Below, in pieces: positions 1,266 to 14,771 of a stretch of DNA of 64,000 nt. The translations under genes were made by a program, and so were the position numbers. Location of the stretch: contig CAWFML010000001.1 in the NCBI GenBank assembly GCA_963817025.1, forward strand, positions 285,332 to 349,331. Reading direction: 5' to 3'. Positions within the stretch are counted from its first letter, which is position 1; every line of letters begins with the position of its first letter. The notes below the pieces were generated by a model, which worked only from the letters and a program-made list of their open reading frames with translations, searched no databases and was not told the origin of the DNA. This DNA is from Pyrinomonadaceae bacterium (GTDB lineage: Bacteria; Acidobacteriota; Blastocatellia; Pyrinomonadales; Pyrinomonadaceae).

Positions 1266-1733
1266 TCAAGCTGCCGTCGCGCCGTATCTGTCTCTCATGA
1301 TTTTTTTGTAAGCCCAGATGAGAAACCAGCCGAAGACCAGATTGCCCGGAGGCGCGATAAACAGCCCGATGCGTCCAATGGTCGTCATGCTCTGGGCCAC
1401 ATACATATAAGTCCAGTCGGAGAACAGCTCAGTCAGGCGCACGCCCGCAATCAGGATCAGCCACCACGGTTCTTTCTCCCACTTAAAGACGGCGATAGCC
1501 TGCAAGAGCGTGAAGGCCACCCACACCGCGCCCGTGCGCTTGAGCAATCCCATCGCGTCAAGGTTGTCGTAATGCACGCCATGAAACGTCATAAACCATT
1601 TGTCTGGATAGAGCAGGCAGGTGGTGGAAAGGACTATGTCCAGAATGACCAGAAAGACGAGCAGGACATAGATAGAAGTTCTCAGTCGTGAGCTAATCAT
1701 CGCAAGAATCCTCCTGACGAAGGTGACGAACAA
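1266..1733 (-). CDS. small polytopic membrane protein (hypothetical), paired with the downstream di-heme cytochrome
   Basis: 155 aa with several hydrophobic helices and no recognisable catalytic motif. Same size, position and orientation as the 3245-3661 ORF, so a likely paralog. Confidence 0.55.
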   Translation of the reverse strand: MFVTFVRRILAMISSRLRTSIYVLLVFLVILDIVLSTTCLLYPDKWFMTFHGVHYDNLDAMGLLKRTGAVWVAFTLLQAIAVFKWEKEPWWLILIAGVRLTELFSDWTYMYVAQSMTTIGRIGLFIAPPGNLVFGWFLIWAYKKIMRDRYGATAA

Positions 1734-1779
1734 AAAGACTTGAACTGTAGCTCTCTTCTCAAAAGGGCTGAAAAGGCCG

Positions 1780-3210
1780 CTATAGTGTTTTCAGAAATTC
1801 GATCAGCGCCTTCTTTTCATCGGGCGCGAGATCAGTGCCCCACAAGTGTCCCTGATTGGAATTGCCCGGAAGGCTCGTGTCATAGAGAGAGCCTCGCGTT
1901 TGGGCTTCTTCTCCGGTGGAAATGAAACCGACTCTCTCCTGATCGTAAACATCATAGCCGCGCCAGAAGAGCTTTGGCCGTTTGTCCTCAGTCTCAAAGA
2001 GATCGAAGAGCGTCGGCACAGAGCCGTTGTGCAGGAAAGGAGCGCGCAGCCATAGACCGTCGAGCGGCACGGAGACATAGCCGTTGGTCTTGCGGAAATT
2101 TTTAAAGCCCCACGCATACTCCGGCTGGTAATTGTTGTAAGCCTTCGCGGCTGCGTCAGTCCACATGTCAACGCGGTGGCGGTCTGTGCCGACAGTCTCA
2201 ACCGCAATCACTTTGCCAGTGCTCTCGCCGCCCGGCGCATGACATGAGGCGCATTGGCGCGCAAAAGTTTCGCTGCCGCGCTTCGCCAGTTCCTGATCGA
2301 GGGCAAAGGGATATTTCGGCGGCTGTAGCTCTGTTATCCAATCCTGCATGCGCTTCAGGTTTTCGCGCTCGATATATTTGTGCGTCGAGCCGTCGCCGAT
2401 GGCCGAACTCAAAACCACTTCATCCACAGAAGTGTTCAGGCCGTCCCAGTGAAAAGACATTCCATTCTGCTGCCGCAGCTTCTGATTCCAGAGCGGAACC
2501 ATATCGGAATTGCCGATGGTGTTATCCATTGGCTGTTTGAGAATGCCGAACTTGATCGGATTGAAAGGGTCTATGCGGCCATGTCCCCAGTTGGGGCGCG
2601 AGTCCATCCACGCGAACTGCGCTTTCTGTTTGAGCAACGTCTTCTGCGTCTGCGGGATGAGCACGTAACGATAGAGCAGCCGCTCGACAGCCGAGAGCTT
2701 ATAGACGTTATCTATCTCGGCCATGATGTTGTCCGCGTTAAAGCGCGGGTCGCTGGCGCACGCATAGAGAAAGCGCACATAGCCCTGCGGGTCGAACTGG
2801 TGCGACGGGCCAGCGGGCACGATGGTCGGTTTATCTCCGGGCTTCATGCGATAGGTCGCCGTGTGACAGAAGGCGCAGTTAAGGGCCACGCGGTCAAAGC
2901 CGATGGTCTTTTTGGAAAAGCCCACGGGCAGCTCAACGCCTTCTTCCCAGACGAGGCCGAGCGAGGCATAGCCGCCGAGGCCCGGCAGCTTTTCGGGAAA
3001 CATGCGCGGCAGGACGAGCCAAATCCAGTACGGGATGCCGTCAGTGTTTTCGTTTCCGAGCGAGCCGTACTTGAAATTATTTTCCGCAGAGGCTTGATGC
3101 GTCTCGACCGTGCGGAACAGGTAGTACCAAGCCATCAAGCCGACGACGCCTGCGAGCAAGACCACGACGACCAACAGCTTTAGAAGAAATCTGCGCGTTG
3201 CTCTTCTCAT
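1780..3210 (-). CDS. membrane-anchored di-heme c-type cytochrome, cytochrome c peroxidase/MauG-like (quinol-peroxidase-like)
   Basis: 476 aa with an N-terminal TM helix and two CXXCH motifs (CAFCH, CASCH). It has the C-terminal motif RAPFLHNGSVPTLFDLF, which resembles the conserved APYFHNGSVxTLEE of bacterial di-heme CCP/MauG. It is a strong paralog of 3697-5163. Confidence 0.65.
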   Translation of the reverse strand: MRRATRRFLLKLLVVVVLLAGVVGLMAWYYLFRTVETHQASAENNFKYGSLGNENTDGIPYWIWLVLPRMFPEKLPGLGGYASLGLVWEEGVELPVGFSKKTIGFDRVALNCAFCHTATYRMKPGDKPTIVPAGPSHQFDPQGYVRFLYACASDPRFNADNIMAEIDNVYKLSAVERLLYRYVLIPQTQKTLLKQKAQFAWMDSRPNWGHGRIDPFNPIKFGILKQPMDNTIGNSDMVPLWNQKLRQQNGMSFHWDGLNTSVDEVVLSSAIGDGSTHKYIERENLKRMQDWITELQPPKYPFALDQELAKRGSETFARQCASCHAPGGESTGKVIAVETVGTDRHRVDMWTDAAAKAYNNYQPEYAWGFKNFRKTNGYVSVPLDGLWLRAPFLHNGSVPTLFDLFETEDKRPKLFWRGYDVYDQERVGFISTGEEAQTRGSLYDTSLPGNSNQGHLWGTDLAPDEKKALIEFLKTL

Positions 3211-3244
3211 AAACTTTGAAACCTACCTTTCGGCTTCTCAAACC

Positions 3245-3661
3245 CTAGCTCCACTTTTCGGTCTTAAAGGCAAGGTACAAAAGAATCGCTTCCGGGATGG
3301 CGAATGCGAGGTCAACGATGCCGAAGGGCATGATGTACGTTCGCGGGAAACCGAAAAAGAGGTAAGCCGACCAGAAAAAGATTGTGCCCGCCAGACGCGA
3401 GAAGATCGCCAGATAAGCGTTCGCGCGGTAGTGATACGGATTCATCGCCGCAGGGATATAAAAGAGCGTGAGCTGGCCCAGCAGGAAGACCGAGCAACGT
3501 ACCCAGATGGGCGTGTTGGTCGGGTCCAGATTGAGAAAGGCCAGCACGCGATGCGGCACAATCATCGTCGGGAGGATGAACATGAAATTAGCGATGATGC
3601 CCAGCCACACTACGCGGCCAAACCAGATCGCATACTTGTTCGTCGGTCGCTCAATCTTCAT
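3245..3661 (-). CDS. small polytopic membrane protein (hypothetical), paralog of 1266-1733
   Basis: 138 aa and hydrophobic. It occupies the same slot upstream of a di-heme cytochrome paralog. Confidence 0.55.
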   Translation of the reverse strand: MKIERPTNKYAIWFGRVVWLGIIANFMFILPTMIVPHRVLAFLNLDPTNTPIWVRCSVFLLGQLTLFYIPAAMNPYHYRANAYLAIFSRLAGTIFFWSAYLFFGFPRTYIMPFGIVDLAFAIPEAILLYLAFKTEKWS

Positions 3662-3696
3662 CGGTCGTGTCTCCTCGAAAAGTCGGGAATCACCCT

Positions 3697-5163
3697 TTAG
3701 AGCTTCTTGATATATTCGACCAGCGCGTCCTTTTCTTCCGGCGTCAGCTTTGTGCCGTAGAGATGGCCCGTGTTGCTGTTTCCCTGCAACGCCGTATCGA
3801 ACTTGAAGAACCTGTGGCCGTTTTCTTCCGCGACGTTTGTCACAAAGCCGAGCTTGATCTGATCGAAAACGTCATAGCCGCGATAAAATTCTTTGGGACG
3901 GTTCTCAGGAGGCTCAAGCAAATCTCTCAGGGTCGGCACAGAGCCGTTATGCAGAAACGGAGCGCGCAGCCACACGCCGTCAAGCGGCATGTTGGCGTAG
4001 CCGTTCGTCTTCCTAAAATGTGAGAAACGCCACTCGTAACCCGCATACAGCGTGTTCTGATTCTCAAGCAATTCATACGTGTATGAATCAAGACGATGGC
4101 GGTCTGTTTGAATCTCTTCAATCGGCGTCACCTTGCCGACCTGCGCGCCGTCAAAGGCATGACAGCCCGCGCAGTTCTGTTGCCAGACCGTTTGTCCCTT
4201 TGCCGCCAACGCTTCATTGACCGGATACGGGTAAGGCGGCGCGGGCAAATCCCAGAGCCATGTTTCGATACGTTTCAAGCGATCAAGGTCAATCGTCGTC
4301 GGCGTCACGCCCGCGCCTAAGGAGGCGGATTTGTTGCGCTCGACCACGGAAGTGTTGTTGCCGTCCCAGTGAAGCTGCATCCCTTCGCGCGGTCTCTGAT
4401 GCCAGATGACCGGCAGGTCAACCGTGCCGATGGTGTGGTCTTTCTCCATCGGAAAATTGAATTGCAGAGCTTTGTATGGATTAAAAGTGTCCACGCGGCC
4501 CGGCCCCCAATCGGGGCGCACATTCATAAAAGAAGTGCGCCGCGCCTGTTCCGTCAAAACCTCGCGCGTGCGCCAGACGGCCTCTCGATACATCAGCTTT
4601 TCAATCGGGTTGAGGCTGGTGCGCTGCGCTATGGCCTGCATCACATTGTCCACTGTGAAGCGCGGGTCTTGCGCCGCTCCATAAAGAAAACGCGCGTAGC
4701 CCTGTAAATCGAAATTGTTGGCGGGCATGCCGAGGATGATGCGCGGCTTGCTCTGCGCGGTGTCGCGCACGGTTCCCGTATGACAGAGCGCGCAGTTCAT
4801 CCCGACGCGGTCAACCAGCACGCGCCGGATTGAAAAGCCTATCGGCGTATCCTTGCCCGGCTCTTCCAACAAGCCGAAACCGGCATAGCCTTTTCCGGCG
4901 ACAGGCAACTTGTCTGGAAACATGTCCGGCATCACTTTCCAAATCCAGTAGGGAATGCCGTTGGCCGGTTCGCTGCCGATAGAGCCGTACTTGAAATGCT
5001 CGTTGATGTCAGGGTAGTCAACCGCCGCGCTCCCGACCGGAATAAGCTTCCAGAAGAGATAGGTGACGATCATCGCCAGCACGAAGAGGACGATGAGCGT
5101 CCATTTGCCGAATCTCTTGCGTTCGGCAAGCTCGACGGGTGTTAGTGGGTCTTGATCTTTCAT
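3697..5163 (-). CDS. membrane-anchored di-heme c-type cytochrome, CCP/MauG-like, paralog of 1780-3210
   Basis: 488 aa with an N-terminal TM helix, CALCH and CAGCH motifs, and RAPFLHNGSVPTLRDLL. A GGAGG ribosome-binding site precedes the ATG. The N-terminal region HFKYGSIGSEPANGIPYWIWKVMPDMFPDKLP aligns with NFKYGSLGNENTDGIPYWIWLVLPRMFPEKLP in the paralog. Confidence 0.65.
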   Translation of the reverse strand: MKDQDPLTPVELAERKRFGKWTLIVLFVLAMIVTYLFWKLIPVGSAAVDYPDINEHFKYGSIGSEPANGIPYWIWKVMPDMFPDKLPVAGKGYAGFGLLEEPGKDTPIGFSIRRVLVDRVGMNCALCHTGTVRDTAQSKPRIILGMPANNFDLQGYARFLYGAAQDPRFTVDNVMQAIAQRTSLNPIEKLMYREAVWRTREVLTEQARRTSFMNVRPDWGPGRVDTFNPYKALQFNFPMEKDHTIGTVDLPVIWHQRPREGMQLHWDGNNTSVVERNKSASLGAGVTPTTIDLDRLKRIETWLWDLPAPPYPYPVNEALAAKGQTVWQQNCAGCHAFDGAQVGKVTPIEEIQTDRHRLDSYTYELLENQNTLYAGYEWRFSHFRKTNGYANMPLDGVWLRAPFLHNGSVPTLRDLLEPPENRPKEFYRGYDVFDQIKLGFVTNVAEENGHRFFKFDTALQGNSNTGHLYGTKLTPEEKDALVEYIKKL

Positions 5164-5339: not shown

Positions 5340-6667
5340 TTAGTGATAAGCGGGCGTGCCTTCAAAGACGGTCATGATCTCCTTAATCATCCGGTCATAG
5401 TCGCCGTCATAACGCGACAGCTCGTAACAGCCGAGCGGGTCAGAAATCGCGTGTACCAGACACTTGTTGCAATAGGTGCAGGGTTTATCAGGCAAGTCTT
5501 TGCCGGAAGCGTAGATGTGTGCCAGGTCGTTATTCGCCACCAGCGGGCGCGCGATGGCGACGCCGTCACAGTAGCCCTCTTTAATCACCTTGCGTATATA
5601 CGAGGCCGTCTGAAAACCGCCTGTGCAAAGCACAGGGACTTTGACGTGCTTCTTGATCTCGCGCGCATCGCCGACGCTGATGCCTTCGATGATGTCCGGC
5701 TTGGTGCGGTTCCAGAGGAAATTAAAGAAGGGACGGAGCAGCCTGTAGCGAAACAACAGGAAATTGCGAAAGCCGTACACGCCGCTCGGAATCATGCCGC
5801 CGTAGGTGCGCGCGGCGTGCTCAAGCGGAAACGGGCCGGGCGGGTTCAAGGGATGCGGAAAAGTGCTGCCGCTCGAAACATGTATGGCATCGGCTCCGGC
5901 CTCTTCGACCATTTTGGCAATCGGAATCGTGTCGTCCAGCGTGTTGCCCTTCTTCTCCCAGAAGGCGAGCGCGTTGTTGTGATCCACTGCGCTGAGCTTG
6001 ACCTGAAAGTGGAAATCATCGCCGACCGCGCTTCTGACCGCGCGCATGATTTCGAGCAGGAAGCGCGCACGATTTTCCAGCGAGCCGCCGTATTCGTCTT
6101 TGCGGTTGTTGATGCCCGAGCTTAAGAATTGATTTATCAGATAGCCGTTGCAGGCGTGTAGTTCTACGCCATCCAATCCGGCAGCTTGTGCGCGGCGCGC
6201 GGCGTCGCCAAACTGCCCGACGACCATCTTGATTTCATCGCGCGTCATCGCCTGACACAAGAGGCCGTGAAAAGAGTCTGTCGTGTCGGTCGAGCTTAAG
6301 GCTCTGTTGAAAGAGTTCTCGACGCCGCCGACATCTCGCTGGCGGCCTCCGTGGCTGAGTTGCATGATGTACTTGCAACCGTACTCATGCACCTTCTCTC
6401 CAACCCTGCGCCAGAAAGGAATCTTGTCGTCGTGGTCTATGAAGGCGTAGTTCGGCAGGATACGCCCGCGCGCACTGATGGGCACATGCGAAGAGATAAT
6501 CGCGCCGACGCCGCCGCGCGCAAATTTCTCTTCCCAGTTGATGCGCGCCTGCGTGCCGATGCCGTTGTAGTAATCGAACCTGCCGGAGATATTCGAGCGG
6601 AAGATACGATTTTTCACCGTGAGGTTGCGAAACTGTAAAGGCTCGAAAATGACATCCTGCTCTGCCA
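5340..6667 (-). CDS. Old Yellow Enzyme family NAD(P)H:flavin oxidoreductase (2,4-dienoyl-CoA reductase-like FMN domain)
   Basis: TIM-barrel OYE hallmarks (e.g. HACNGYLINQFLSSGINNRKDEYGGSLENRARFLLEIMRAVRSAVGDDF). The likely true start is MAEQDV at 6667, preceded by a GGAGGA ribosome-binding site; the longer ORF-track start at 6824 runs into a repeat element. Confidence 0.8.
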
Positions 6668-6727
6668 TGACTCCGTTCCTCCTACTCGTCTGAAAATTTC
6701 CGCCTGCGGGCCAAACAAGAGCGTTGA

Positions 6728-6832
6728 ACCAGATGTTCTTTGCGGCGCTTTGCGTCTGTTCTTCTTTGCGGTTAAGAGTTTTTTTTAACGCAAAGGGCGC
6801 GAAGTATTTTCGCAAAGAGCGCAAAGATTATT
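6728..6832. repeat. palindromic repeat, GCGCAAAG family (degenerate copy)
   Basis: ctttgcggcgctttgcgtctg...cgcaaagggcgcgaag...cgcaaagagcgcaaag, imperfect inverted CTTTGCG/CGCAAAG units. Confidence 0.6.
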
Positions 6833-6878: not shown

Positions 6879-7775
6879 CTAGTGACGCTCCGCCTTCAAC
6901 TGCGCGTCCACAGCCGCGCGGTCTGGCGGCGTGAGCCAGACTTCGCCGAGGCCGAGGTTGACGACGCTCTCCAAGCCTTCGGGCGCGTGTTGCGGGGCCT
7001 GTTCGTAAGTGACGAACCAGCTCTCGCAGTAATCGTCGAGCGTGCCGTTGGTGCTTGGGAGAAATGCTGTAAAGACAGGGTCTTTGCTGATCTCAAGCTC
7101 TTTCAAGGGCTGCATCAAAGGGTGGCCGCCAAGAGTCAGTGTGGCCGCGCCTTTTTTGAATAAAGAGAACCCCACCTTGCTTTTGAAATAAATGCGCGAG
7201 CGCATCAGCATCCCGCGAAACTCGCAATAGTTAATCGCGCCGATGTTGAGCGGCATCCATGCTTTGCTTGGTCGCTCGATGTCAATCCGCATGGCAAACT
7301 GCCCGTCCTTGTCATACTGGCTGCTGACGATTTTGTCTGTGATGACGAAATCCAAGTTGGCCTGATGCTTGGGCATGCCCCAGATGCCTTTGCCGCCTTT
7401 GACGGAAATCTCCGTGCTGACGGGCAGGTCTATGACGTACTGGCCCAGACCGTAGTGCGTCCAGAAGAGCGCGGGAACGAAACGCGGCGCAGCCTTGCGC
7501 CCGTGCGTGCAGGCGATGGCGATGCTGAACTCTATGTATTTGCCGATGACCGTGTTGACGTAGTTGATGACGGTGATGACGAGCAAGCCTTCGTTCCACA
7601 GGCGATAGGGATAGACCTCGTTGCCCGGCATCAATTTTTTGGCTTTGTCTGCATTGATCTTAAAGACAGCGAAGAGCGCAGGCGTCTCGTGACACGCAAT
7701 CGGCAGGTGATACGGGATGTGATCCACCAGCGAATAACGGCCCGACTGTCTCTTTAAACGTCCAGGCATTCCCAT
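6879..7775 (-). CDS. hypothetical protein (possibly acetoacetate-decarboxylase-like fold; unverified)
   Basis: 298-aa ORF in operon context with good coding potential. I recognise no unambiguous motif. Confidence 0.45.
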   Translation of the reverse strand: MGMPGRLKRQSGRYSLVDHIPYHLPIACHETPALFAVFKINADKAKKLMPGNEVYPYRLWNEGLLVITVINYVNTVIGKYIEFSIAIACTHGRKAAPRFVPALFWTHYGLGQYVIDLPVSTEISVKGGKGIWGMPKHQANLDFVITDKIVSSQYDKDGQFAMRIDIERPSKAWMPLNIGAINYCEFRGMLMRSRIYFKSKVGFSLFKKGAATLTLGGHPLMQPLKELEISKDPVFTAFLPSTNGTLDDYCESWFVTYEQAPQHAPEGLESVVNLGLGEVWLTPPDRAAVDAQLKAERH

Positions 7776-7787
7776 AAGAAATTTCCT

Positions 7788-8882
7788 TTAGTTGTCTTTA
7801 TCCAGTTCCGCCACCAGTCGCGGGAAGGTGTCTTGAGCCGCGTTGCGGCCCATAAAAACATCCAGATGGCCGTAGGTCTCAAAGACATGATGCGAGTGAT
7901 AATTCTTGCGCTGTTTGTCGAAATACTCGAAAGTCCTCGCCTGACTTTCCGGCAGAAAGCAGAGATTCTTTGCGCCCGCGAAAAAAGCAAAGCGCGCATC
8001 CGTCTGCGGCGGCTGGGCCGTAAAATCCGCTGGCAGTTCTTTCTTGCCCTCGACGGAAATCAAGTTGCCCTTGCTGACACAACGCGCCATCTGCTTAAAG
8101 AATGTGATGGGAACTTTGGCAAACTCGTGCTTGAGCCATTCGTGCGTCTCGTCGTTCAGATTCTCGTGTCGCCACAAGGCCGGAAAGCCGCTCCCGTAAG
8201 TAAAACTCACCTGCTTGCAGACGGCGTTATCGCACTCGTGATGCGTCAGCTTGACGAGCAGGGAAATCATCTTGGCCGCGAAGGTCGGAGCGTTCAAGCC
8301 CCATTGCGGGTCGAGATAATCCGTCATCAGGCCAATCATCGGGACGGCGAGTTTGAGCTTTGTCGCAGACAGGCCGGGGACGACCGTGTGCAGAGAGACT
8401 GCGTTGGTGACGATGGTCTTGACCTGCGGCACGAGGCCCGCCATCGCAGACATCATAAAGCTGGTCGAACCCTGGCAATGAATGACAGCTTTAACTTCAT
8501 CCGCGCCGGTCTCTTTGACAATCGTCCTGATTGCTTCGGGATGGTCATAGATGGCTGCCTGATCCAGCGTCCAGTGGTTCGGCTTGAGATCAATGCTCGC
8601 GCGCCAGTTTTCCATCCACACGTCATAGCCGTGCTCGATCAGGTAATCAACAAAAGTGGTTTCAACCGGAGCGCGGAACAGGTTGGCGCGCACGCCCGCG
8701 CCGTGCACGAGCATCACAGGGCCTCTGGTCGGAGGCTTTTCTCCCTGCACATGTATCAGGTTGCACTGGAATCCGTCACCGGCTGTGAACGGAACTGTGC
8801 GCTCCGTGTAATTCCTCTTGCCCTGTAGGTCTTGAGATACTGCTTGTGACATTACTTCTCCTTGCAAAACTTCTCTTCTCAT
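7788..8882 (-). CDS. alpha/beta-fold hydrolase (esterase/lipase-like)
   Basis: HGAGVRANLF oxyanion-hole region and an HCQGS (GxSxG-type) nucleophile elbow. Its start overlaps the upstream gene's stop (ATGA), implying translational coupling. Confidence 0.7.
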   Translation of the reverse strand: MRREVLQGEVMSQAVSQDLQGKRNYTERTVPFTAGDGFQCNLIHVQGEKPPTRGPVMLVHGAGVRANLFRAPVETTFVDYLIEHGYDVWMENWRASIDLKPNHWTLDQAAIYDHPEAIRTIVKETGADEVKAVIHCQGSTSFMMSAMAGLVPQVKTIVTNAVSLHTVVPGLSATKLKLAVPMIGLMTDYLDPQWGLNAPTFAAKMISLLVKLTHHECDNAVCKQVSFTYGSGFPALWRHENLNDETHEWLKHEFAKVPITFFKQMARCVSKGNLISVEGKKELPADFTAQPPQTDARFAFFAGAKNLCFLPESQARTFEYFDKQRKNYHSHHVFETYGHLDVFMGRNAAQDTFPRLVAELDKDN

Positions 8883-10669
8883 GCTCCCTTGCGCTGTGCG
8901 ATGAGATGGTCTGCACAGCGGTCAGAGAATGCGCCGATGGTCAATGAAGGATTTGGCCCGACCGGGCCGGGCATGGCAGAGCCGTCAACGACATATAGAC
9001 CCGGATAGCCGAAGACCTCTCCGTATTGATCCACCACGCCTTGCTCCGGCCCTGCGCCCATCGGCGCGCCGCCGAGAGGGTGAGCCGTCAGGACTTGACG
9101 AAAGAGCGTGTAAGCGGGGTTGTCCAGATATTCCGCGTTCAAGGCTCTGGCGATGGCTTTGCCGACACGCCTCACGCGGTCGAAATAGTCCTTCGAGATC
9201 TTGATCGCCCAATCGCATTCGAGCAGGCCGTCCTCAGAGAGATACAGCTTGCCGTTCGGAATATCACGTCCCATCGTGAGCACCGGGAATGAGCTGACGG
9301 AACTGCTGGCCGGGCCGATCAAATCGGAAATCTCCGCGCTCAGGTCTGCATCATTGCTGAATCCCAAACGATACTTGGCGGCAATCTTGAGAAACTTCAG
9401 AGACCGTTTCAAAAAAGCCGGAAGCCCGGACAATTCCGAAAACCAGCTCAGCAGATAAGGATTGCCTCCATCTTCAGCATAGAAGCCGCGTCCCTGCGGG
9501 CCATCTCCGTCCAGCGTGTCGCCGACACGAATCGCGCTGGTGATGACCGGCCCGAAGCTGGGGTCTAGACGGCGCGGCACGCTCTGGCCGTGCTTTTCCT
9601 CCATGCTCTTGACGATGAACGAGAGCAGGTCGCCGTTGACGCAGAAGCGCGAGCCGAGCGTCTGCATGTTCAGGCGCGGGAAATGTTGAGCCTGATTTTT
9701 TAATAACAGGTGTGGCGTGCCAAACGTCCCGGCGGCGAGTATCAAGCGGTCGCAGGTAATCGTCCCTTCCGGCGGCGGCGGGCACTGGCCTGTCTGCGGG
9801 TCAACCTGTTTCGGGTCGTGCCTGAGAAAGACGACCTTGTATCCTTTGCCGTCGAGTGGCGCGATGGTCTTGACCTCGCACAAAGTTTCCACCTTCGCGG
9901 GGTTCGGCTTTTGATGTATGGCCGCCGTCACGTAAGTGTAGTCGAGCGTGTTCTTGCTGCCGTAGTTACATCCGATGTCACACTCGCCGCAGAGGCGACA
10001 GGTCTGGCGCGGCATCTCGCGGCCAGCCATTACCGCATGATAATTCGGATAAGGCTCGTCAAGCTCTGCGCCGACGATGGGCGGGTTGGCAGGGTCATCT
10101 TCGTCAGGGTTGCTGACATGCTTGCGTTTGAAGCTGACGGCCAGATTGAGCGGCAGCCACCTGTGCGTAGAGTTATCGTCGAGCTGCATCTTCCGGTCTG
10201 CTTCGCGCATTGCCAGAGTCTTTGGCGTCGCGTCATAGGGCGGATGACTCAGCGGGTACTTCTGCACGTTCATCATTTTCTCGACACGCCCGTAGTGCGG
10301 TTCGAGGTTATCGTAAGTGATGGGCCATGATTCGGTGACGCCGCCCTCTGTCTCGTCCTTGACGAACCACTTCGGGTCTTTGCGAATCAGAATATTCGCG
10401 TAGATGAGCGAGCCGCCGCCGAGACCGCTGGAGATGAGCGCGCCAGACCCCTTAAACGACCAGACATCGAACATGCCGTAGAGGCCAGAGGAAGGGTCCC
10501 AGAAATTTTTTCCTAAATCATAAGGAGCACGCGCAAAGGAATTTGGCGGATAGGCTTTGCCGCGCTCAAGCAGGCAGACTCTCAGGCCAGCTTCCGCCAG
10601 GCGGTAGGCCATCACCGCGCCGCCAAAGCCCGAGCCGATGATGACCGCATCGAAATGTTCGTTGTCCAT
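8879..10669 (-). CDS. GMC-family FAD oxidoreductase (cholesterol oxidase-like), full length
   Basis: 596 aa. N-terminal DAVIIGSGFGGAVMAYRLAEAG Rossmann FAD motif and overall GMC architecture. Paralog of the partial gene at 1-1195. Confidence 0.8.
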   Translation of the reverse strand: MDNEHFDAVIIGSGFGGAVMAYRLAEAGLRVCLLERGKAYPPNSFARAPYDLGKNFWDPSSGLYGMFDVWSFKGSGALISSGLGGGSLIYANILIRKDPKWFVKDETEGGVTESWPITYDNLEPHYGRVEKMMNVQKYPLSHPPYDATPKTLAMREADRKMQLDDNSTHRWLPLNLAVSFKRKHVSNPDEDDPANPPIVGAELDEPYPNYHAVMAGREMPRQTCRLCGECDIGCNYGSKNTLDYTYVTAAIHQKPNPAKVETLCEVKTIAPLDGKGYKVVFLRHDPKQVDPQTGQCPPPPEGTITCDRLILAAGTFGTPHLLLKNQAQHFPRLNMQTLGSRFCVNGDLLSFIVKSMEEKHGQSVPRRLDPSFGPVITSAIRVGDTLDGDGPQGRGFYAEDGGNPYLLSWFSELSGLPAFLKRSLKFLKIAAKYRLGFSNDADLSAEISDLIGPASSSVSSFPVLTMGRDIPNGKLYLSEDGLLECDWAIKISKDYFDRVRRVGKAIARALNAEYLDNPAYTLFRQVLTAHPLGGAPMGAGPEQGVVDQYGEVFGYPGLYVVDGSAMPGPVGPNPSLTIGAFSDRCADHLIAQRKGA

Positions 10670-10727: not shown

Positions 10728-12719
10728 TCAAGCTTCGTGCAGGTGCGAGACGCTCTCGACGCCTGTGTGCGTGCCCGCTTTCTTTAAAATGACAGGAGGC
10801 TCTATCAGTTCCGGCTCGGTGGCGCGCGGGTCGTCGGAGACAAGAGCAGGGCGTTTGTCGTCTGCATCCGGGCGCGGCTTCCACTTGCGCGGCACGCGCC
10901 TGATGCCAATCGGATAGATGGTCAGGCTTCCGTCTTTATCTATGTGCAGCCTGAGCGTGTTCTTCCAGTCTTCGACGGCAATCGAAGAGAAGGCTTCGTT
11001 TGAATGTCTCCCGAAGAAGTTCATGGACAAGAGCAGATAAAGCCCCATCACGAGCGAGCCGAAGACAAAGCCGCCGAGCAGAATCAGCACAGAGACCAGC
11101 AGCATGCGCCAATCAAGATGAAACTCATAGTTTGCCAGAGACACCTGCGAGACCCATGCGAGCGATGAAATCTTCGACACAAAGGAGACGGCAACGATGG
11201 CGACCCCGAACGCAGCCAGAATGTGCGCCACCCCGTGCAAAGAACCCATGATGCCCCTGTAAAGTCTGGAGCGGGTGTCCGTGAAAAAGACGAAGGCGGC
11301 GAGCGTCAGCACGACCAGAAAAGAGGTCACGGAGCTATCGAGCACGCTGTAGAGAGCGGTGCTGGCAATCGTTCCTAGATCGTAATTGAGATGGCTGAAA
11401 CGCCAGTAGCTATCATCTATCCGGGCGACGACAGAGAGCGTCATAACCAGATACAGCACAGCCGTCACCAGCCCGAAAGTCCAGCTCGCATTCCCTTTCA
11501 GATAAGGAAATATCAGATTGCGCCAGCACAATCGCCGCGACTCTTTTCTTGGCGGGTAGCAGGCTCTGAGCGCGAAGACGCGGTCGTTCATCATCCCGTC
11601 AAGGCTCTTCTCGACAATGACATCAAGCTTTCTTCCCAAATATCCTTCGTGCGTCGGATGCAGGAATGCGCCGCCGCCGCCCGCCGTAATCTTCTGTGTT
11701 GATTGGTCCAGAGATTCATGACGGCGATAATGATGCAGGTCTCCGGCGATAAAGACGGCCACGCCTTTGCCAAGTCTTTTTTCGAGCAGTCTCAGATTGC
11801 TCTCGTTGTAATTGGGTTCGTCCAGTCCTTCAAATTGCGCGGCGCGAATCCAGTGCGGCTCGGCATGACAGAGGATGACGCTCGCGTGCTCATTGGTTCT
11901 AGCCGTCTCCGCCTCCATCTCTGCGGCGAGGCTTCTAAAATATTCGACCTGCGGCCCGTCTATATCCGAGCCGAGTTGCACGTCCGTTCCCAGCAGCCAC
12001 CAGTTGTGCGGGAGTTTTAAAGCAAAGTAACTGCGCGCTTGCTGCGTGCGCCAGCCGGCGAACCAGCGGTGAGAGGTGAAGAGGCGTGTAAAAGCCACCA
12101 GACTGTCATACCAGTCATGGTTGCCGGGAACGGCGAAGACGTGCGGGTGATTGCTGTCCGTGTAACGGAGCGCGGTCTCGTATGGCGCGATCAATCGCTC
12201 GTTGTAAACATCGCGGCTGGCCGTCGGGTAAACCTCGTCGCCGCCAAAGATGAGTATGTCTCCCCTGTGCGTCTCCTCCTGTCGCTGCTCTTTGGTCTGA
12301 GGGTCTGTGTAGGTAAAGGTGCGACCCGTTTCGGCCAGATGATGCGCTATCGCATAGGTCGAGTTCCAGCCGTCACCGACATCGCCGACGTAATCTATCC
12401 AGATTGAATCTCGCGGTCGCGTCGTGTCAGGCGCACAGTCATCCTTTCCATCGTCCCTGTAATGAAAGCTATAGTCATAGAACTTTTCCTGCTCGCCCGC
12501 GCCCATCGCTTCCACCAATCTTCTATCGGAGTGATGACCGAAGATGGTCGAGATGGCGACCTCGATTCCGGTCTTGGCAAGCTGGCGCGGGTCATACCAA
12601 CCAACCATCGGCAGTTGTTTGGGCTTCGGGTGCGGCGTGACTCCCTGAGAGACCGCAGCAGGCGCTGTCGTTATCGACTGACTCACGCTCTCGAATGTTT
12701 GCCCGTTCTGCGTAGCCAT
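10728..12719 (-). CDS. calcineurin-like metallophosphoesterase fused to a C-terminal polytopic membrane domain
   Basis: Metallophosphoesterase motifs GDVGDG, GGDEVY, GNHDWY and HHY in the N-terminal ~380 aa. The C-terminal ~250 aa is strongly hydrophobic with multiple TM helices. It is the first gene of the 12.7-kb minus-strand array. Confidence 0.75.
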   Translation of the reverse strand: MATQNGQTFESVSQSITTAPAAVSQGVTPHPKPKQLPMVGWYDPRQLAKTGIEVAISTIFGHHSDRRLVEAMGAGEQEKFYDYSFHYRDDGKDDCAPDTTRPRDSIWIDYVGDVGDGWNSTYAIAHHLAETGRTFTYTDPQTKEQRQEETHRGDILIFGGDEVYPTASRDVYNERLIAPYETALRYTDSNHPHVFAVPGNHDWYDSLVAFTRLFTSHRWFAGWRTQQARSYFALKLPHNWWLLGTDVQLGSDIDGPQVEYFRSLAAEMEAETARTNEHASVILCHAEPHWIRAAQFEGLDEPNYNESNLRLLEKRLGKGVAVFIAGDLHHYRRHESLDQSTQKITAGGGGAFLHPTHEGYLGRKLDVIVEKSLDGMMNDRVFALRACYPPRKESRRLCWRNLIFPYLKGNASWTFGLVTAVLYLVMTLSVVARIDDSYWRFSHLNYDLGTIASTALYSVLDSSVTSFLVVLTLAAFVFFTDTRSRLYRGIMGSLHGVAHILAAFGVAIVAVSFVSKISSLAWVSQVSLANYEFHLDWRMLLVSVLILLGGFVFGSLVMGLYLLLSMNFFGRHSNEAFSSIAVEDWKNTLRLHIDKDGSLTIYPIGIRRVPRKWKPRPDADDKRPALVSDDPRATEPELIEPPVILKKAGTHTGVESVSHLHEA

Positions 12720-13299: not shown

Positions 13300-14292
13300 T
13301 CAGTTCGTGCCGACCGAACAAGCTTTCCGGGCCGCAGAGATAACTTCCGCGCGCGTCTTCTCTGCGCTGACCCCGGTTGAGAGCGACTCTCTTTTCTCCG
13401 CACGCTTGGGCGATGTCTTGACCAGCGCGACGCCGCACAGGATGATCAACATCGCTGTCACCACACGCCAGCCCAGAGATTCCGAGAGCACAGCCCAGCC
13501 AAGCAGGACTGCGATAATGGGATTGATGTACGAGTACATAGAGACCAGCGAGAGCGGCAGTTTCTGAATCGCATACGTGTAAGAGCCATAGGCCACGATT
13601 GAGCCGAAGACGATCAAGTAAGCGATGGCCGACAGCGACCTGCCGCTGAAATGCATCACACGCCATTCGCCCAAAGTAGTGCCGAGCATCGTCAGCGCCA
13701 CGCCTGCAATGAGCATCTGCACGGCGGCAGCCATCAGCGGCGGCAAATCCGTCTGGTGATGTTTCGAGTACACGGAACCGGCAGACCATGAAGCGCAGCC
13801 AACCTGTATGGCGACCGCGCCCAGCAGGTAATAACTATTGAGCGTCGTCCCAAACAGGTTCGGCGCGATAAGCAGGGCCAGACCGCAGAAACCAATCAAC
13901 AGGCCAACCACTGCGCGGCCACTGACGCGCTCGCCATCGCGCAGGAATCTCTCAAGCCCCACAACCCAGAAAGGAGAAGTTGCGACCAGCAGTGCGGCAG
14001 GGCCGCTCGGAACCCACTGCTCCGCCATCACCACAGCCCCGTTGCCGACGCCCAGAAGCATCAGGCCGATGATGCTCTGATTTAACCACTCTCTGCCCTG
14101 CGGCAGACGCGCCCCCCGCCAGAAATAGACAAACGAAAAGAGCAATGCGCCCGCAATGAGAAAACGCATCCCCGCAAGGAGCATCGGCGGCAGGGTCTCT
14201 AACCCGACGCGAATCGCCAGATAGGTCGTGCCCCAGAAAAAACAGACGGCAGCCCACGCGCCGTATGCTGCAAACTGTTCCCTTCTCGTCAT
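13300..14292 (-). CDS. EamA/DMT-superfamily transporter (putative amino-acid/metabolite exporter)
   Basis: 330 aa, ~10 TM helices, duplicated EamA-like halves. Confidence 0.8.
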   Translation of the reverse strand: MTRREQFAAYGAWAAVCFFWGTTYLAIRVGLETLPPMLLAGMRFLIAGALLFSFVYFWRGARLPQGREWLNQSIIGLMLLGVGNGAVVMAEQWVPSGPAALLVATSPFWVVGLERFLRDGERVSGRAVVGLLIGFCGLALLIAPNLFGTTLNSYYLLGAVAIQVGCASWSAGSVYSKHHQTDLPPLMAAAVQMLIAGVALTMLGTTLGEWRVMHFSGRSLSAIAYLIVFGSIVAYGSYTYAIQKLPLSLVSMYSYINPIIAVLLGWAVLSESLGWRVVTAMLIILCGVALVKTSPKRAEKRESLSTGVSAEKTRAEVISAARKACSVGTN

Positions 14293-14771
14293 AAGCTTGA
14301 CCCCTCCCGCTTGACGGACAAACGCTGAGACTCCTTGACCGTCTTGAGCACGATTGTCGTGCGCGTCGAGCGTATGTACTTAAACTGACCGAACTCCTCT
14401 TTCAGAATCCTGTATAAGTCATCCGTGTCGCGCGCACGCACCTTGACCAGAAAACAATCCTCGCCCGCCAGATGATGCAATTCCAGCACGCTCGGCAACG
14501 CCGCCATCAGTTCGGCTGTCTTGTCGGCTTCCTCTACGACATCGTGTTGCTCATCCACACGCACAAAGATAAAAGCCACCAGCCCCAACCCCAGCGCATG
14601 CGGGTCAACCAGAGCCATGTAGCCCTTGATAAAGCCGCGCTCCTCTAGCTTCTTGACCCGCTCAAGAGTCGCAGAGGGCGTCAGTTCCACGGCCCTAGCC
14701 AGTTCGACATTGGTCATCCGACCATCTCGCTGAAGCAATTCGAGAATTAAAGCGTCTTTTTCATCCATCAT
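14289..14771 (-). CDS. Lrp/AsnC-family transcriptional regulator
   Basis: N-terminal HTH (ILELLQRDGRMTNVELARAVELTPSATLERVKKLEERGFI) plus a C-terminal RAM domain. Its stop overlaps the EamA start (ATGA), a classic Lrp-exporter pair. Confidence 0.9.
   Translation of the reverse strand: MMDEKDALILELLQRDGRMTNVELARAVELTPSATLERVKKLEERGFIKGYMALVDPHALGLGLVAFIFVRVDEQHDVVEEADKTAELMAALPSVLELHHLAGEDCFLVKVRARDTDDLYRILKEEFGQFKYIRSTRTTIVLKTVKESQRLSVKREGSSL

Follow-up and report, generated by a model that had tools for sequence, protein, structure and literature searches.

The 64,000-nucleotide (nt) stretch of DNA analyzed here (the window; contig CAWFML010000001.1 of a Pyrinomonadaceae bacterium, positions 285,332 to 349,331) carries on its minus strand two genes for RoxA-like di-heme c-type cytochromes, CYT1 and CYT2, each followed by a gene for a small four-helix membrane protein, smB behind CYT1 and smA behind CYT2. 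Our analysis shows that the cytochrome pair goes back to an ancient duplication, that the ancestral unit is CYT1-smB-CYT2 with one small protein, and that the conserved core of the system is this unit preceded, as first gene, by one for an old yellow enzyme (OYE)-type oxidoreductase. The primary association of the second small protein, smA, is with the GMC oxidoreductase gene downstream of it and not with CYT2. By analogy with characterized relatives the operon probably oxidizes an unsaturated membrane lipid, and on balance we favor, as the best explanation of the whole, a lipid oxygenation module at the membrane face made up of OYE, CYT1, smB and CYT2, with smA going with the GMC enzyme.

A preliminary description of this region had read its four open reading frames (ORFs) as two pairs of small protein and cytochrome with the same order, orientation and spacing, arisen by tandem duplication of a two-gene module. 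All four ORFs (1266-1733, 1780-3210, 3245-3661 and 3697-5163) were confirmed in the ORF listing on one strand, where smB follows CYT1 after 35 nt, CYT2 follows smB after 34 nt and smA follows CYT2 after 79 nt. That strand is however the minus strand, so that each cytochrome lies ahead of a small protein and the order of transcription is CYT1 (3697-5163, 488 amino acids (aa)), smB (3245-3661, 138 aa), CYT2 (1780-3210, 476 aa) and smA (1266-1700, 144 aa). The likely start of smA is the ATG at 1700, which matches the public gene call; the TTG at 1733 would yield 155 aa. All four belong to the distal portion of a single long string of minus-strand genes.

CYT1 and CYT2 align end to end with 219 of 476 positions identical (46%; E 3e-152), which upholds the full-length homology proposed for them. 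Both pass the cutoffs of PF21419 (RoxA-like cytochrome c-like; 57.8 and 52.3 bits, cutoff 26.7) and of NF040606 (“di-heme cytochrome c peroxidase”; 200.9 and 182.3 bits, cutoff 150), and neither matched PF03150 (CCP_MauG) at E <= 0.01. The two CXXCH motifs and the PFLHNGSVPTL motif that had been described are present in both: the key residues of CYT1 lie in CALCH128, HW266DG, CAGCH335, PFLH405NGSVP and GNSNTGH467, and CYT2 keeps its two CXXCH motifs (CAFCH and CASCH), HWDG, PFLHNGSVP and the distal His. The pair of CXXCH motifs is invariant among relatives (74/74 for CYT1, 50/50 for CYT2), and the conserved motifs of the N-terminal part are HFKYGS and GIPYWIW. The only solved relative found by sequence is RoxA (4b2n), with an E-value of 1.5e-9 for the single sequence and 2.7e-17 for the family profile; in the hidden Markov model (HMM) alignment, a comparison at the sequence level, F301-W302 of RoxA falls on HWDG, PYFHNGSVP on PFLHNGSVP and GNDNGGH on GNSNTGH. 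By sequence CYT1 and CYT2 are paralogous RoxA-like di-heme c-type cytochromes. Each has one strongly hydrophobic N-terminal segment in the hydropathy profile (residues 23-41 of CYT1 and 8-26 of CYT2), and the heme domains must therefore lie outside the cytoplasmic membrane and be tethered to it. A protein identical to CYT1 is present on a public contig of 990 kb, and the named homologs of the cytochromes and small proteins come mostly from metagenome-assembled genomes of Pyrinomonadaceae. The cytochrome family as a whole comprises at least 7,950 protein clusters from many phyla, annotated merely as “cytochrome c”.

The age of the cytochrome pair was assessed in a survey in which one genome per species was scanned with the cytochrome family, the copies were mapped by HMM and the neighboring genes were clustered. 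The 80 loci obtained (given below by their L numbers) span Cyanobacteria, Acidobacteriota, Alpha-, Beta- and Gammaproteobacteria, Myxococcota, Chloroflexota, Verrucomicrobiota, Planctomycetota and Nitrospirota, and at least two adjacent cytochrome copies are found in 60 of them. The preliminary description had suggested a phylogeny of both pairs. In our neighbor-joining tree of 132 full-length cytochrome domains the first copies in the tandem form one clade and the second copies another, with few stragglers such as L073, in which the order is inverted. This split holds across Cyanobacteria, Acidobacteriota, Proteobacteria, Chloroflexota, Verrucomicrobiota and Planctomycetota; CYT1 of the window clusters with CYT1 of Blastocatellia and cyanobacteria, and CYT2 of the window with their CYT2. 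The duplication of the cytochrome is ancient, and the tree rules out a recent local one. Both CXXCH motifs, the His of the MauG-type motif and the distal His are retained alike in the two clades. The inter-heme Trp is found in 74/74 CYT1 proteins as against 30/50 CYT2 proteins, being replaced in the other 20/50; CYT2 of the window retains it.

The survey also contained a second type of system, in which an ~800-aa RoxA-like c-cytochrome and an ~750-aa protein without a Pfam family precede CYT1-CYT2. It is found in many proteobacterial, Nitrospiraceae and Verrucomicrobiota loci (for example L044:208-2850 and L066:3634-5859) and never with smB; L017 is the sole locus that has both the large cytochrome and an OYE gene.

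Within CYT1-smB-CYT2, smB is the dedicated and conserved, and probably also the physical, partner of the cytochromes. It belongs to no Pfam or NCBIfam family. Homologs amount to 48 clusters at 90% identity in a word-indexed search and to 488 representatives at 50% identity in an exhaustive profile search (E <= 1e-3), and the divergence of smB from its ortholog in L089 lies mostly in third codon positions (14/7/67 differences at positions 1/2/3). The residues invariant in the family alignment include N25, W53, Y68, P70 and R89, with D117 nearly invariant. In an AlphaFold2 (AF2) model (pLDDT, the predicted local distance difference test score, of 79.5) with helices at 9-34, 36-42, 51-73, 79-103 and 107-133, the polar residues N25, R89 and D117 are predicted to sit in mid-membrane. 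smB-family domains occur in 40 of the 80 loci, always adjoining cytochromes; the order is CYT1-smB-CYT2 in 19 loci and CYT1-CYT2-smB, or one cytochrome with smB alone, in others. In 10 loci smB and a cytochrome are even joined in frame into one protein, with smB at the N-terminal end; the cytochrome is CYT2 in the Bryobacterales-type loci L039, L042, L045 and L073 and, in L069, L074 and L077-L080 (Pseudomonas and other genomes), a single copy. Independent gene calls likewise include fusions of 618-642 aa and, with the smB domain present twice, fusions of 776/777 aa; the RoxA-like domain is found in all of them. As the fusion proteins have 4+1 predicted membrane helices, the topology of smB must be N-in/C-in with the cytochrome outside.

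The preliminary description had offered a quinol-binding subunit as one possible role for the small proteins. We find no support for this role or for one in electron transfer: the smB family alignment contains no conserved His or Met and no recognizable quinone-site motif, and smB as a heme-b or quinol-type anchor was rejected for want of a conserved His. smB also occurs in tandem doublets, namely in proteins of 281/283 aa, in the 776/777-aa cytochrome fusions and, in L017, sharing a single open frame with a GMC oxidoreductase (L017:8955-12281, L027:9043-10943; proteins P0326, P0434, P0291 and P0297). From these doublets the membrane unit may be dimeric, and smB, too, may be linked to GMC enzymes.

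smA belongs to a separate family. Between smA and smB the best BLASTP E-value was 2.7, and hhalign gave a probability of 0.7% with the two family profiles and of 0.9%, globally and locally, with a 69-sequence smB alignment from several phyla; homology of the two proteins is detectable by neither method. Foldseek searches with the two models returned nothing significant, soluble four-helix bundles scoring as well as tetraspan membrane proteins, and tetraspan lipid-binding proteins (EBP/EXPERA, tetraspanins, MS4A) share with smA and smB the general shape only, at 5-15% sequence identity. A tandem duplication of the two-gene module is thus not supported, since only the cytochrome can be shown to be duplicated, the small proteins have no detectable homology and the cytochrome split is ancient. 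smA too lacks a Pfam or NCBIfam family. Its 267 clusters of homologs are confined to Acidobacteria-like contigs, with a divergence from orthologs that is dominated by third codon positions. The polar residues D21, R55, Q67, R88, E91, D95 and N120 within its helices are invariant, and the AF2 model has four helices (pLDDT 89.4; boundaries include 52-73, 79-101 and 107-143).

A metagenome scan with the smA alignment yielded 59 loci. Close relatives (at least 64% identity) follow CYT2, with smB present in L082, L089, L095, L098 and L099 and absent in L083, L084 and L087; smA of L125/L126 (60% identity) also stands after CYT2 with smB present, and in L104/L105 smA lies upstream of OYE. More distant members (51-58% identity) are found in clusters of a metallophosphoesterase, smA, a GMC oxidoreductase and a 311-aa protein, with no cytochrome within 6 kb. 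Of 39 loci, 16 have a cytochrome and 9 a metallophosphoesterase directly upstream of smA. A GMC gene lies within ~2 kb downstream of smA in ~25 of the 45 loci whose sequence reaches far enough, the window, L002 and L007 among them. In the window this gene, GMC2, begins at 1195, 70 nt past the smA stop (2-1195, the N-terminal 398 aa, cut by the window edge; PF00732 50 bits and phmmer); a plus-strand ORF at 620-1228 overlaps it and was rejected as spurious. In the distant loci the gene immediately ahead of smA encodes a protein of ~745 aa that matches Pfam Metallophos; no direct sequence match between these proteins and the metallophosphoesterase of the window was found. The ~311-aa protein that follows GMC in these clusters (L112:8184-9119, L106, L111, L119, L124, L129 and L132) has no Pfam family and no detectable similarity to the acetoacetate-decarboxylase-like (ADC-like) and hydrolase genes of the window. 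In L109 a patatin-like phospholipase adjoins smA.

The idea that a hydrophobic protein of ~140-155 aa is the conserved partner of the cytochromes therefore survives for smB, through the 40 of 80 loci and the 10 fusions, but not for smA with its cytochrome-free clusters. The co-occurrence statistics that had been proposed, here run on the 80 cytochrome-chosen loci and on the smA loci, divide in the same way, smB going with cytochromes and smA mostly with GMC. This corrects the logic of annotation, in that the second small protein is placed in a GMC oxidoreductase module and not with the cytochrome.

The remaining component of the conserved core is the gene directly ahead of CYT1, an OYE-type flavin mononucleotide (FMN) oxidoreductase (5340-6824, minus strand; PF00724, 209 bits). 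The annotated TTG start is probably 52 codons too early, with the true start at Met53 (6668). Orthologs 45-83% identical to the window protein are present in 36 of the 80 loci, in ~30 of which they immediately precede CYT1 in the same orientation, and OYE and smB occur together in 30 loci (Fisher 1e-7, uncorrected for phylogeny). The protein has neither a signal peptide nor an NAD(P)H-binding domain. A C-terminal CxxCxxC(x10)C motif (residues 449-466), invariant in 25/25 orthologs, suggests by its resemblance a 4Fe-4S site, presumably like that of the Fe-S-containing FadH/TMADH class.

Genes for lipid-oxygenating enzymes often lie beside this core. Lipoxygenase genes were found in 5 loci and animal-heme-peroxidase/cyclooxygenase (COX)-like genes in 15 others, and of this total of 20 loci 19 are among the 46 of the smB/OYE type and 1 among the other 34. 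The lipoxygenases are mini-lipoxygenases of ~546 aa whose genes come straight after CYT2 in five loci of cyanobacteria (L003, L047, L051, L055 and L070), at ~9.1-12.1 kb (L047: 6.5-8.1 kb), for example at L070:9115-10755; examples of the COX-like animal heme peroxidases are L076:1947-3779 and L024:1300-3060. A fusion of a GMC oxidoreductase to an alpha/beta-hydrolase, ~1150 aa long, is encoded directly upstream of the smB-cytochrome fusion in L069 (898 aa, at a contig edge), L074 and L077-L080. The alpha/beta-hydrolase of the window is 31-34% identical to the C-terminal half of these fusions, and homologs of the first GMC oxidoreductase of the window (GMC1) are found in the same fusions and in L109 (74%).

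Putting these observations together, we infer the substrate class, the reaction order and the role of smB as follows. CYT1 and CYT2 would be held by their N-terminal helices at the outer face of the cytoplasmic membrane, with smB as an integral subunit bound to both, and would act as an oxygenase/peroxidase pair on a membrane-derived unsaturated lipid (a fatty acyl or isoprenoid chain). CYT1 may be a di-heme-dependent oxygenase and CYT2 a more derived enzyme for a second step; these roles are proposed because of the analogy with RoxA (O2-dependent C=C cleavage) and with the Pseudomonas aeruginosa pair PA2077/PA2078 (a 10S-dioxygenase, then a hydroperoxide-converting diol synthase). smB would dock the enzymes at the membrane and may present the lipid by way of its buried polar site N25/R89/D117, and the cytoplasmic FMN/Fe-S OYE could reduce the unsaturated carbonyl product.

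Several observations weigh against this proposal. The BIG-CL4-CYT1-CYT2 type, found in beta- and gammaproteobacteria, Nitrospiraceae and Verrucomicrobiota and making up half of the loci, has no smB, OYE or lipid oxygenases. Not every system therefore needs smB, and the lipid context belongs to one sub-type. Neither a lipoxygenase nor a COX-like gene occurs in the window. The co-occurrence statistics are uncorrected for phylogeny and come from loci chosen via the cytochrome. On the RoxA, RoxB and RoxC equivalog models CYT1 and CYT2 score 60.9-86.1 bits, in the C-terminal region only, against cutoffs of 900-1000; the NCBI family name is that of a peroxidase, and a peroxidase for H2O2 or lipid hydroperoxides fits the same motifs. 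From the 16 of 39 loci with a cytochrome directly upstream of smA, these two could also be functionally linked within this lineage. Finally PA2077 and PA2078, which were compared by their published description, are proteins of 634 and 624 aa with cleaved signal peptides, as opposed to the anchored proteins of 488 and 476 aa here.

Of the other explanations, the least improbable is a membrane system for peroxide detoxification or respiration, with di-heme peroxidases that would reduce H2O2 or lipid hydroperoxides on the periplasmic side, smB (and smA) as a quinol-binding anchor passing electrons to them and OYE as a cytoplasmic detoxifier of reactive enals. We consider it unlikely. Both cytochromes do pass the NF040606 model and carry the PxxHNGSVP motif of the CCP/MauG type, their membrane tethering is in line with such a role, and lipoxygenase and heme peroxidase neighbors would suit the handling of hydroperoxides too, OYE enzymes being able to reduce enals derived from lipid peroxidation. 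Yet smB has no conserved His or Met to bind a heme b and no quinone-site motif that we could recognize, which leaves the system with no plausible subunit for electron input, and where quinol peroxidases carry a third heme domain there are here only two CXXCH motifs. The cytochromes have no match to PF03150 and their best relative is the dioxygenase RoxA; nor does a peroxidase role explain why 60 of 80 loci have retained both paralogs side by side.

More improbable still is the tandem duplication of a unit of small membrane protein and cytochrome, with homologous partners and diverged substrates or donors. The cytochromes are paralogs, and the two small proteins are of similar size with nearly identical helix boundaries (51-73/79-103/107-133 in smB, 52-73/79-101/107-143 in smA), with an invariant Arg at equal depth in the third helix (R89 and R88) and a matching polar residue in the first (N25 and D21), a likeness that would fit a very remote common origin of smA and smB. 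Two copies of smB per cytochrome pair, seen in L017 and L027, and the double-smB fusions of 776/777 aa make a 2:2 stoichiometry plausible. Against this stand the BLASTP and hhalign results, a cytochrome duplication that crosses phyla as opposed to an smA restricted to Acidobacteria-like contigs, the widespread arrangement of a single small gene between the cytochromes, and the occurrence of smA in clusters without cytochromes or, in L104/L105, upstream of OYE. That the small ORFs are spurious intergenic frames can practically be dismissed. Neither has a Pfam or NCBIfam family and one annotated start is a TTG, but both have hundreds of homologs with invariant residues, third-position divergence and confident AF2 models, and smB is found in in-frame fusions; the lack of homologs and the poor coding statistics that would have marked them as spurious were not observed.

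The genes ahead of the core complete the string, which reads, in order of transcription, metallophosphoesterase, GMC1, alpha/beta-hydrolase, ADC-like protein, OYE, CYT1, smB, CYT2, smA and GMC2, all on the minus strand. The first gene encodes a calcineurin-like metallophosphoesterase of 663 aa (10728-12719; PF00149). GMC1 (8879-10669, 596 aa; PF05199/PF00732) is cholesterol oxidase-like, has no signal peptide and reaches 174 bits with NF058674, far under the cutoff of 850; its stop shares 4 nt (8879-8882) with the start of the alpha/beta-hydrolase (7788-8882, 364 aa; assigned by Pfam). The ADC-like protein (6879-7775, 298 aa; PF06314, 48.3 bits) has no homolog in the other cytochrome loci surveyed. 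The metallophosphoesterase gene is preceded by a gap of 580 nt, in which there is a sigma-70-like near-consensus site (13169-13142, minus strand) with 11 of 12 positions matching. Promoter and terminator scans gave overall counts not above those of shuffled sequence, this site being the sole exception, and were not used. Beyond the site, genes for an EamA-family transporter and an Lrp/AsnC-type regulator are found at 13300-14771 (minus strand).

Pfam and NCBIfam already contain models of the cytochrome family and, with its nearest characterized relatives known, the system cannot count as one of a new kind. What appears to be undescribed in the literature we searched is the ancient CYT1/CYT2 pairing, the four-helix partner with its fusions, the coupling to OYE, the neighborhood of oxylipin enzymes and the association of smA with GMC; searches on RoxA-like and di-heme proteins, on FadCcp and on lipoxygenase with old yellow enzyme and di-heme found only papers on P. 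aeruginosa. To our knowledge two activities of RoxA-type di-heme oxygenases have been established, rubber cleavage and the dioxygenation of oleate in P. aeruginosa, whose products are quorum signals. OYE-CYT1-smB-CYT2 itself ranges over Cyanobacteria, Acidobacteriota, Alphaproteobacteria, Myxococcota, Planctomycetota and some Pseudomonas. This leads us to speculate, quite tentatively, that it may be a widespread and undescribed membrane lipid-oxygenating system of the oxylipin type, in which di-heme dioxygenases of the RoxA/FadCcp type would form a membrane-integrated complex with smB, smB would deliver the lipid and the products would be signaling or remodeling lipids as in the oxylipin quorum sensing of P. 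aeruginosa. In any case the pairing, the coupling of the cytochromes to smB and OYE in half of the sampled genomes and the lipoxygenase/COX-like neighbors make it possible to test concretely for a pathway of lipid oxidation or oxylipin synthesis that may be common among bacteria.

Among characterized systems the closest analogues are RoxA and the PA2077/PA2078 pair, which are O2-dependent and work on hydrocarbon chains with unsaturated bonds. Classical di-heme cytochrome c peroxidases (CCP), MauG and BthA share with CYT1 and CYT2 the di-heme c-type architecture and the xxHNG/HDG region, and BthA (6v59) gave a weak local match (E 0.12-0.4). They differ in size, in the HFKYGS and GIPYWIW motifs and the membrane anchoring found here, and in the predicted ligands of the second heme, which in CYT1 and CYT2 are of the His/His type as in RoxA and not His/Met; PF03150, too, is not matched. 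The likeness to RoxA, the rubber oxygenase of Xanthomonas sp. 35Y, extends to two c-type hemes, both predicted to be covalently bound through two CXXCH motifs, to the inter-heme Trp (W302 of RoxA, W266 in the HWDG of CYT1), to the PYFHNGSVP “MauG” motif and to the C-terminal His of the GN.N.GH motif, which aligns at His641, the distal heme ligand of RoxA (PMC4496055). RoxA is however a secreted soluble monomer of ~660 aa, as opposed to ~480 aa here, and aligns from the inter-heme Trp to the C-terminus, approximately the C-terminal half, only; here we find an N-terminal membrane helix, a paralog pair and a four-helix membrane partner.

The second analogue is the oleate-diol synthase pair of P. 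aeruginosa. PA2077 is a 10S-dioxygenase that requires both hemes and PA2078 a 7,10-diol synthase, together forming the “FadCcp” subfamily; both are periplasmic, and a transmembrane helix is predicted for PA2077 only (PMC4496055). The published account mentions neither a membrane protein as partner nor an OYE gene, and where PA2077 has W251 at the inter-heme position PA2078 has S243 (PMC4496055), a Trp that CYT2 of the window keeps. In both systems, nevertheless, two adjacent genes encode RoxA-like di-heme paralogs of similar divergence (43.4% identity there (PMC4496055), 46% between CYT1 and CYT2), which have the same set of motifs (two CXXCH, PYFHNGSVP and the distal His), are sited outside the cytoplasmic membrane and have the inter-heme Trp relaxed in the second paralog, by S243 in PA2078 and by replacement in 20/50 proteins of the CYT2 clade. 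A lipid context is likewise common to the two, here by way of the lipoxygenase and COX-like neighbors of related loci.

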